Assembly (NCBI GenBank): GCA_036477985.1
Contig: JAZGDQ010000107.1
Coordinates: 1-25,590, forward strand
DNA from: a bacterium
GTDB taxonomy: Bacteria; UBA8248
Reading direction: 5' to 3'
DNA length: 25,590 nt
Shown: positions 21,301 through 22,052 of the stretch, one piece after another
How the letters are laid out: every line of letters starts with the position of its first letter
Position numbering within the stretch: the first letter of the stretch is position 1
Program-made: the position numbers and the translations under genes
Notes under the pieces: generated by a model
Told to the model about the DNA's origin: nothing
What the model saw: only the letters and a program-made list of their open reading frames with translations
Databases searched by the model: none

Positions 21301-21977
21301 CACGGACCTCCCGTTCCGAGGACCTGGCCCACCACCTCGTGGGCGCGCCGCAACAGCTCCTGCCGCAGGTCGCGCAGGGGGTAGAACTGGACGTCCATTC
21401 GGGAGAACTCCTCGTCGAGGCGGAGCCCCAAGGGCCCGTTCCGGCGGAGCCATTCGGAAAAATCGTCGTTCCCTTCCGGAAAATGGCGCCGCGCCTCCAC
21501 GAAGTGGTAGTAGATGCTGGCCCGCGACATGGTCTTCAGCGCCCAGATGATCTCGTCGGGCCGGTCGAGGCGGACCCCGGTGTCGAACACCACCATGGAG
21601 GCGCGCATGAAGTAAAACGCCCGGCCGTAGCCCGCCCAGGGAATGTAGTCGATCTCCGAGAGGCGCTCCTCGAGAACGTCCAACAGGGCGGTGCGCAGAT
21701 TCTCGATCGAACCGGCCGTTTGGGGGTCCAGTATCCCGAGCCGCTCGGCGAGCACGTCGTCGCGCAGGGCGCGGTAGGCCCAGGTGGCGAAATCGTTCGT
21801 GAACTCGGGATCGTCGAAGGTGGGCCGGAGCTGAATCTCACAGAAGTGGTGGTAGATGCTGTCGTCGCTGCACCGGGTGGTGCGGTCGCACAACTCGCGC
21901 AGGTTGATGGCCGAGGGCTCCCCGTCCATCCGCACGATCAGTGCGCAGGATTTGATCTCAAAAGGACTCACGCCCAT
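21300..21977 (-). CDS. DUF5752-like protein of unknown function with an internal two-fold repeat; start is ATG 21977 or GTG 21971
   Basis: Two related halves (SIYHHF...NDFATW; SIYYHF...DDFSEW). TGATG coupling to treT. The family name is recalled from the motif and neighbourhood, not searched. Confidence 0.8.
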   Translation of the reverse strand: MGVSPFEIKSCALIVRMDGEPSAINLRELCDRTTRCSDDSIYHHFCEIQLRPTFDDPEFTNDFATWAYRALRDDVLAERLGILDPQTAGSIENLRTALLDVLEERLSEIDYIPWAGYGRAFYFMRASMVVFDTGVRLDRPDEIIWALKTMSRASIYYHFVEARRHFPEGNDDFSEWLRRNGPLGLRLDEEFSRMDVQFYPLRDLRQELLRRAHEVVGQVLGTGGP

Positions 21978-22036
21978 CCGCCCCTCCCCCGAACCGCGAA
22001 GGAGGGCGGAATACTTTCAAAAACAATCGGATACAT
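21968..22036 (-). CDS. Candidate 22-aa leader peptide MYPIVFESIPPSFAVRGRGGWA
   Basis: GGGAGG at 22046-22041, ATG at 22036, open for 22 codons. Its TGA (21970-21968) overlaps the GTG at 21971 of the next gene. Below the ORF-track length cut-off; inference only. Confidence 0.35.
   Translation of the reverse strand: MYPIVFESIPPSFAVRGRGGWA
21977..22010 (-). promoter_or_regulatory. 14-bp hairpin sequestering the SD and AUG of the DUF5752-like gene
   Basis: On the minus strand UCCGCCCUCCUUCG-cgguu-CGGGGGAGGGGCGGA(UG): 12 Watson-Crick pairs, 2 G-U pairs and one bulged G. Confidence 0.7.
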
Positions 22037-22052
22037 ACATCCTCCCAGAGTC

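Follow-up and report, generated by a model that had tools for sequence, protein, structure and literature searches.

A leader open reading frame that may open a ribosome-binding-site hairpin in front of a trehalose-synthesis operon

The stretch of DNA considered here, 25,590 nucleotides of a bacterial contig (JAZGDQ010000107.1 of assembly GCA_036477985.1, lineage UBA8248) and hereafter called the window, carries on its minus strand a three-gene trehalose-synthesis operon, DUF5752-treT-otsB. The first gene (21977 to 21300; ATG at 21977–21975) encodes a DUF5752 protein (PF19027, E 2.8e-63), and a literature search on DUF5752 yielded no paper on it. The stop codon of this gene is overlapped by the start, either GTG 21303 or ATG 21300, of treT, the gene for trehalose synthase (21303 to 20062; PF21269 and PF00534); the stop of treT is in turn overlapped, in the arrangement GTGA, by GTG 20065, which opens an otsB-like trehalose-phosphatase gene (20065 to 19235; PF02358). 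TreT is found in one operon with an OtsB-like phosphatase, and OtsA is absent from the window. In the leader of the operon a 22-codon open reading frame (ORF; 22036 to 21968) crosses a hairpin that pairs the ribosome-binding site of the DUF5752 gene. The original prediction, made from the sequence of the window, took this arrangement for a translation-sensing switch in which the ribosome passes from the leader ORF to the operon at GTG 21971 and a Pro-Pro pair in the leader peptide acts as the sensor. We find support for the locked ribosome-binding site, the passage of the ORF through the hairpin, its SD-like sequence and ATG at the predicted 5′ end and the position of its stop codon, but not for the hand-over at GTG 21971, the proline sensor or conservation of the ORF. 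Our tentative preference is for a simpler version, in which the leader ORF, on being translated, opens the hairpin through ordinary coupling.

Where the operon starts was judged from DUF5752 orthologs, which we gathered from six genera of the same family and additionally from metagenomes and protein clusters (loci are given L numbers and genera g numbers below). The ortholog N-termini, of the form M-G-x-x-P-F-E, align to ATG 21977, with MGVSPFEIK in the window, MGFNPFEVK in L003 and MGINPFEVK in L184, and the latter two have no GTG at codon 3. The operon Shine-Dalgarno (SD) sequence, GGAGG at 21987–21983, which is paired in every fold, is separated by 5 nt from ATG 21977 and by 11 nt from GTG 21971. 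Because of the N-terminal alignment, the two orthologs without GTG and this difference in spacing, sequence comparison places the start at ATG 21977 rather than at GTG 21971, and the latter is ruled out as a coupled start. The stop codon of the leader ORF does overlap GTG 21971–21969, and this GTG is in frame with the DUF5752 gene, as had been proposed; the apparent GTGA is, however, the Val codon at position 3 of the DUF5752 gene followed by a Ser/Asn codon, a dipeptide common to several genera. Genuine GTGA overlaps are present elsewhere in the window, between gmhA and hldE (3491), between MBL and purB (6922) and between treT and otsB.

The hairpin extends from 22010 to 21977 on the minus strand. 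It consists of 14 base pairs with one bulge, formed by a 5′ arm UCCGCCCUCCUUCG, a loop CGGUU and a 3′ arm that includes the whole of GGAGG 21987–21983 and the A of ATG 21977. Its predicted free energy is −23.7 kcal/mol (z −2.63), and 3 of 200 shuffled sequences fold equally well. As a control we folded the region from −35 to +4 at 815 candidate gene starts of the same genome that are preceded by GGAGG; the mean was −12.0 kcal/mol (standard deviation 4.6), and the trehalose leader ranks sixth of the 815, within the top 0.7%. The leader as a whole is not unusually structured, with z-values of −1.65 for 121 nt and −0.83 for 79 nt. A helix between GGGAGG at the 5′ end and the CCUCC run of the 5′ arm (−9.8 kcal/mol) would form first during transcription and last only until the 3′ arm has been made; when this pairing is forced the leader reaches −20.8 kcal/mol, against −35.0 kcal/mol for its minimum free energy structure, and this difference of 14 kcal/mol rules out a thermodynamic switch between the two. 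No terminator-like site was detected in the leader. Neither the window nor any of 13 orthologous loci contained a match to Rfam 15 at the gathering score, and relaxing the threshold to E ≤ 5 for the region 21900–22200 also gave none. RNAalifold applied to 12 leaders predicted no pair and hence no consensus structure; the folds of the individual leaders are heterogeneous, the window hairpin cannot be aligned across the relatives, and in g2 and g6 the usual partner of a CCGCC run is the 5′ end instead of the SD sequence, in a pattern for which covariation could not be shown.

The leader ORF encodes MYPIVFESIPPSFAVRGRGGWA, from ATG 22036 to the stop codon TGA 21970–21968. In front of it, at the predicted 5′ end of the transcript, stands an SD-like GGGAGG (22046–22041), so that the message would begin GGGAGG-AUGU-AUG. 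This reading of the start, with a predicted 5′ end, agrees with the original prediction, as do the passage of the ORF across both arms of the hairpin, checked here by reading and folding, and the position of two proline codons, CCG CCC (22009–22004), within the anti-SD arm. The stop codon lies 7 nt downstream of ATG 21977, a geometry that still suits re-initiation at that ATG. Among the 815 control starts, 2.7% have an ATG ORF of at least 22 codons that ends at the start of the gene. A fold of −20 kcal/mol or lower together with an upstream ORF (uORF) of at least 15 codons occurs at three loci in the genome, and the trehalose leader is the sole convincing one.

The transcript itself is predicted from a putative promoter, TTGACT-N14-TGGCATTTT (22081–22053, minus strand), which comprises a −35 element TTGACT (22081–22076), a 14-nt spacer and an extended −10 element TGG-CATTTT (22061–22053). 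Of 13 orthologous leaders, drawn from five genera, 11 carry a corresponding block, ATTGACC-N14-GTGTGGCATCTT, almost without change, and a purine stands 7 nt beyond it; a generic sigma-70 scan gave the window promoter no score. The position of the promoter predicts that the transcript begins near G 22046, which would place the uORF start codon at 22036 inside it; conservation of the promoter is support, rather than proof, of this 5′ end. The motif has a single occurrence in the 3.07-Mb genome, and together with its strong conservation this suggests that the locus is additionally under transcriptional control of its own. The same single occurrence disposes of a promoter regulon, and a sigma-54 reading of TGGCAT was rejected by eye on its unsuitable spacing. 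Across genera the promoter block (TTGACY-N14-TGGCATYTT) is better conserved than the adjoining coding sequence.

Within the leader, alignment of 13 leaders showed nucleotide-level conservation of a second block, TGTATCCGATTGTTTTT (22035–22019, minus strand), with the consensus TGTAAC-N3-TTG-ATTTT. In the window and the 12 other leaders it sits 15–35 nt past the predicted 5′ end. The block has no codon periodicity, and its reading frame differs between genera. In some genera it forms a short palindrome with paired changes (GTGTAACAC in L005 and L013, GCGTAACGC in L187), and it is possible that it serves as an operator for some regulator or as an RNA site.

The leader ORF is kept unevenly among the relatives. 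In L003, from the nearest genus, the position and frame of the uORF start are taken by GTG-TAT, with a length difference of 3 nt; the ORF it opens has 24 codons and its stop at +17, and the leader has no Pro-Pro and no comparable hairpin. Within g2, L005 and L006 carry ATG ORFs of 24–25 codons that end on the start of the gene, two compensating 1-nt indels restoring the frame; the only ORF in L007 and in L190 has 6 codons, and that of L013 runs into the gene. The leader ORFs of g6 differ from that of the window or are absent. When leader ORFs were compared with shuffles of their own sequences, no single leader gave p < 0.05, and look-ups in metagenomes and protein clusters yielded no second member of the window's own genus. 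The original prediction had looked to orthologous leaders for a conserved uORF, a Pro-Pro motif and a stop/start overlap; in the nearest genera an equivalent uORF is largely missing. Judged from these alignments, the hairpin of the window and its uORF with SD and ATG are specific to its own lineage, which would be expected if the two had evolved together and equally if they had arisen by chance. The much longer leaders of L009 and L012 in g7 share a hairpin, ACCCGUUGCCUUGAAACGGG, and other conserved stretches with no Rfam match, and could represent a different structured leader on the same operon.

Some further features of the locus are recorded here. The DUF5752 gene was found in none of 23 searched genomes of g8, the family's largest genus, and in 12 of 19 other genomes of the family, the window's own included. 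An MscS-type mechanosensitive channel gene (22635–25403, plus strand) diverges from the trehalose operon (21977 to 19235, minus strand). A 180-codon ORF (22559–22017, minus strand) lies in the same frame as the DUF5752 gene, with one stop codon between them, and its beginning resembles a charged helix followed by a membrane helix; it had been considered as a conserved gene reaching into the leader and was rejected, having no Pfam match and no homolog at the relatives' loci.

Proline codons recur in the leaders of the family. In the window they form a single pair followed by Ser (IPPS, in the context ...ESIPPSFAV...), and this pair is a by-product of the anti-SD run CCGCCCUCCU, which reads as Pro-Pro in two of its three frames (the neighbouring frame has CCU CCU); for that reason it carries no weight in the window. 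The nearest relatives, L003 and L184, have no Pro-Pro. The situation is different in g9, a sister genus represented by Nitrospinota metagenome-assembled genomes labelled 'Tectomicrobia', in which four haplotypes (L010, L186, L195 and L011) have a uORF of the form ATG-CCC-CCT-CCG...CCG-CCG-CCG...TGA, encoding MPPPAADPSPPPRNGP and its variants (...RKGS and MPPPTADPSPPPRNGS). This uORF, of 16 codons (L010:1454-1504, and at the same place in the three others), ends in a TGA that overlaps the DUF5752 ATG (ATGA), and the sequence upstream of it, CAGAGGAA, is invariant, whereas the spacer between SD sequence and uORF ATG is variable at 4 of its 10 nt. Eight substitutions in its 48 nt fall six times at codon position 3, twice at position 1 and never at position 2 (binomial P = 0.02), and variable sites number 7 in the 48-nt uORF against 16 in the 50 nt upstream. 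On this sequence evidence the g9 uORF makes a stronger candidate polyproline leader peptide than the ORF of the window, and these features together indicate that leader ORFs are in use on this operon within the family.

Proline runs occur in other relatives as well. L008 has a 28-codon ATG ORF, spanning −110 to −24 relative to the DUF5752 ATG, that ends CCG CCA CCG CCT CCA (PPPPP) and then TGA. Here the proline codons supply the anti-SD sequence, CCGCCUCCA being paired with the gene's UGGAGG, and the stop codon shares bases with an ATG that is in frame with the gene and precedes the aligned start by 27 nt. In L185, a relative of L008, the proline run is missing. L004 (1468-1503) and L192 share a conserved TTG-CCG-CCG-CCC(-CCG) about 31 nt before the GTG start, which in L004 is in frame with DUF5752 (a possible N-terminal extension MPPPTDGPYSY) and in L192 belongs to a separate, overlapping ORF of 16 codons; in L191 the TTG is replaced by CTA. 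An open frame with PP or PPP but no canonical start is present in L191, L187, L007 and L190. Outside the family, in other phyla, only 1 of about 135 distinct DUF5752 leaders has an ORF with PPP or two PP, and proline-rich uORFs were accordingly rejected as a general DUF5752 trait. Shuffling gave p-values for a proline-rich ORF of 0.0003–0.03 in the relatives and 0.02–0.06 in the window; these overstate the case, because the C-run that the shuffles destroy yields Pro-Pro automatically in two of three frames. By our own tally, four or five of eight lineages with a C-run have proline in a frame that can be started, where perhaps 25% would be expected. The C-runs may exist for RNA pairing, and we regard the proline lead across the family as suggestive, not conclusive.

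How might the leader of the window work? A free 30S subunit should hardly be able to start on a GGAGG and an initiation codon whose first base are held, as folding predicts, in so stable a hairpin. We infer that something has to open a stem of this stability, and that the leader ORF does so; the 22 codons read from ATG 22036 behind the SD-like GGGAGG are the only cis element that would be able to open it. A ribosome on this ORF would have to melt the hairpin, and on terminating at UGA 21970–21968, 7 nt past the ATG, would leave GGAGG free just upstream; the terminating ribosome, or a fresh 30S subunit, could then start the DUF5752 gene at ATG 21977. Translation of the operon would thus follow translation of the leader ORF, and the Pro-Pro pair would contribute no more than a modulating pause. 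Such a route, by way of melting, termination and re-initiation, is simpler than one that needs a ribosome paused on Pro-Pro. The absence of a competing fold and of a terminator argues that the leader is not an attenuator in the style of mgtL or mgtP. Ordinary coupling that opens the hairpin, whether or not a proline pause takes part, is the best explanation we can offer, held at somewhat less than an even chance. Besides the rank of the hairpin and the geometry of the ORF, the same-frame GTG ORF of L003 and the uORFs of g9 speak in its favour.

Several observations weigh against it, and part of them favour a reading, which we consider a serious possibility though a less probable one, in which the hairpin alone regulates, being opened by a trans-acting RNA, a protein or helicase, a time window during transcription or physical conditions, while the ORF is a frame left open by chance where the sequence is rich in GC and poor in stops. 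Dinucleotide shuffling of the 69-nt leader produced an ATG ORF of 22 codons or more, with its end between −15 and +25 of the start, at p = 0.059, and at p = 0.27 when GTG and TTG starts were also allowed; two of the three frames run open from one end of the leader to the other, and the C-run gives Pro-Pro in each of the two. The product of the rates for hairpin and ORF over about 3000 genes would give some 0.6 chance coincidences per genome, and the locus was chosen for showing this coincidence, which is therefore not significant by itself. The original prediction had itself cautioned that a single sequence leaves room for chance. Five of the six strongest ribosome-binding-site hairpins in the genome have no uORF, so that other ways of opening such hairpins must exist. 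The uORF is not conserved in L184, where the frame is open as far as a TGATG overlap but the start codon is absent, in g2, where the ATG of L005 and L006 lies 5–7 nt past the −10 element and thus probably at or before the 5′ end, or in g7, where the leader is about 190 nt long and there is no common uORF. The 5′ end of the window transcript is itself a predicted one. The spacing between GGGAGG and ATG is only 4 nt, as the original prediction had cautioned, and GGAGGAU-like purine runs stand at the same place in L007, L190 and L009 with no start codon behind them, so that the SD-like motif is not kept for the uORF alone. The conserved block downstream of the promoter, with its lack of codon periodicity, and the transient helix formed by the 5′ GGGAGG speak for a hairpin acting by itself. 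On the other side, the Rfam search and the consensus folding turned up no partner, riboswitch or thermometer, and a stem of −23.7 kcal/mol is far more stable than is usual for known RNA thermometers. It would also have to be coincidence that an SD-like sequence and an ATG stand exactly at the 5′ end and that the stop falls 7 nt past the start. The least likely of the readings is that there is no regulation, that a GC-rich leader has produced hairpin and ORF incidentally and that translation of the operon is normal: the unremarkable folding of the leader as a whole and the lack of any conserved structure would agree with it, but a hairpin so high in the ranking of the genome's ribosome-binding sites, and pairing both the SD sequence and the start codon, should strongly depress initiation.

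As a special case of opening by the leader ORF, a ribosome paused at Pro-Pro on the 5′ arm could hold the ribosome-binding site open, so that EF-P activity, prolyl-tRNA or the proline pool would tie trehalose synthesis to the translational or osmotic state of the cell. The Pro-Pro codons lie on the appropriate arm, EF-P is encoded in the genome, and the proline-rich ORFs of g9, L008, L004 and L192 occupy the same place, in a family outside which such ORFs are so rare; a leader ORF that senses charged tRNA-Pro is known from mgtP (PMC8092293). In the window, however, the pair is one that the anti-SD run supplies automatically, a paused ribosome would find no alternative fold and no terminator to act upon, and by our own footprint estimate a ribosome paused near 22006 would extend as far as about 21991, where it would crowd a 30S subunit at the start. 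The absence of Pro-Pro from L003 and L184, the loss of the L008 proline run in L185 and the in-frame prolines lacking a start codon in L187, L007, L190 and L191 also speak against it, and we think a proline sensor at this locus improbable. A related and broader proposal, which we likewise rate as improbable, is that across the Nitrospinota proline-rich leader ORFs gate translation of DUF5752-treT-otsB, their proline codons doubling as anti-SD sequence, and that the capacity for Pro-Pro bond formation (EF-P, prolyl-tRNA, proline pool) sets the synthesis of a compatible solute. Its variants would be IPPS in the window, MPPP...PPP... and ...PPPPP-stop in the sister genus and TTG-PPP(P) in others. 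If true, it would connect trehalose production with proline status in a way not described so far.

Should the leader ORF prove to open the hairpin of the window, the locus would add another case of translation-coupled control of a ribosome-binding site, in an uncultured phylum of nitrite oxidisers (Nitrospinota), and would give a first regulatory handle on the uncharacterised pairing of DUF5752 with TreT. As a case it is an ordinary and unproven candidate. The more interesting lead is outside the window, in the proline-rich uORFs of the sister genus, which are better supported by their invariant SD sequence, ATGA overlap and third-position bias and would make control of compatible-solute synthesis by polyproline capacity testable.

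Among described systems, the leader can be compared with several in which a short or proline-containing ORF controls the gene behind it. In classical stop/start coupling (ATGA, GTGA or TGATG) the stop codon is likewise within a few nucleotides of the downstream start, and this genome uses GTGA and TGATG between real genes; in the leader the stop is 7 nt downstream of the real ATG, and its GTGA is codon 3 (Val) and not a start. The mgtL (mgtA) and mgtP (mgtCBR) leaders of Salmonella, which are ORFs with proline codons (PMC8092293), act on transcription elongation through alternative stem-loops, and mgtL responds to hyperosmotic stress. They resemble the window in having an ORF with proline codons before a stress-related operon, the speed of the ribosome at these codons serving as a report on the state of the cell; they differ in that the window has no mutually exclusive stem-loops, competing fold or terminator-like element and its proline codons are not conserved in the nearest relatives. 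In EF-P-dependent polyproline pausing (for example Elgamal et al., 2016; PMC5021804), ribosomes that lack the help of EF-P are slowed at consecutive proline codons. The g9 relatives have PPP twice in 16 codons and L008 has PPPPP; the window has only IPPS. Pausing of this kind is known mostly from within ordinary proteins and is not known as a leader switch on trehalose genes. In the RAPP-type arrest peptides ApdA and ApdP a Pro-Pro motif arrests the ribosome and thereby exposes the ribosome-binding site of the next gene (PMC7897499; PMC10951233), a logic common to the window; these peptides are much longer and precede Sec/YidC genes, and their motif, Arg-Ala-Pro-Pro or RGPP (PMC10951233; PMC12992588), is absent from the window peptide and from the g9 peptides.

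Of the systems described so far, mgtQ-mgtB of Salmonella comes nearest as a precedent; in it, translation of a short ORF frees a ribosome-binding site locked in a stem-loop and the proline codon of the ORF is dispensable (Choi et al., 2021; PMC8092293). The two systems share a short ORF just upstream of a gene whose ribosome-binding site is locked in this way, and the window has both an ORF with its own start signals inside the predicted transcript and a downstream ribosome-binding site paired in a stem-loop that the ORF overlaps. MgtQ has 8 codons, is intergenic within its operon and relies on Asp/Glu codons that destabilise the ribosome and on the competition of stem-loops 1:2 and 3:4 with 2:3, whereas the ORF of the window has 22 codons, crosses a single hairpin in a 5′ leader for which no alternative fold was found, ends past the start codon and has no sequence similarity to mgtQ. 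On this comparison the leader of the trehalose operon, if real, would belong to a known kind of leader-ORF coupling, that of mgtQ-mgtB.

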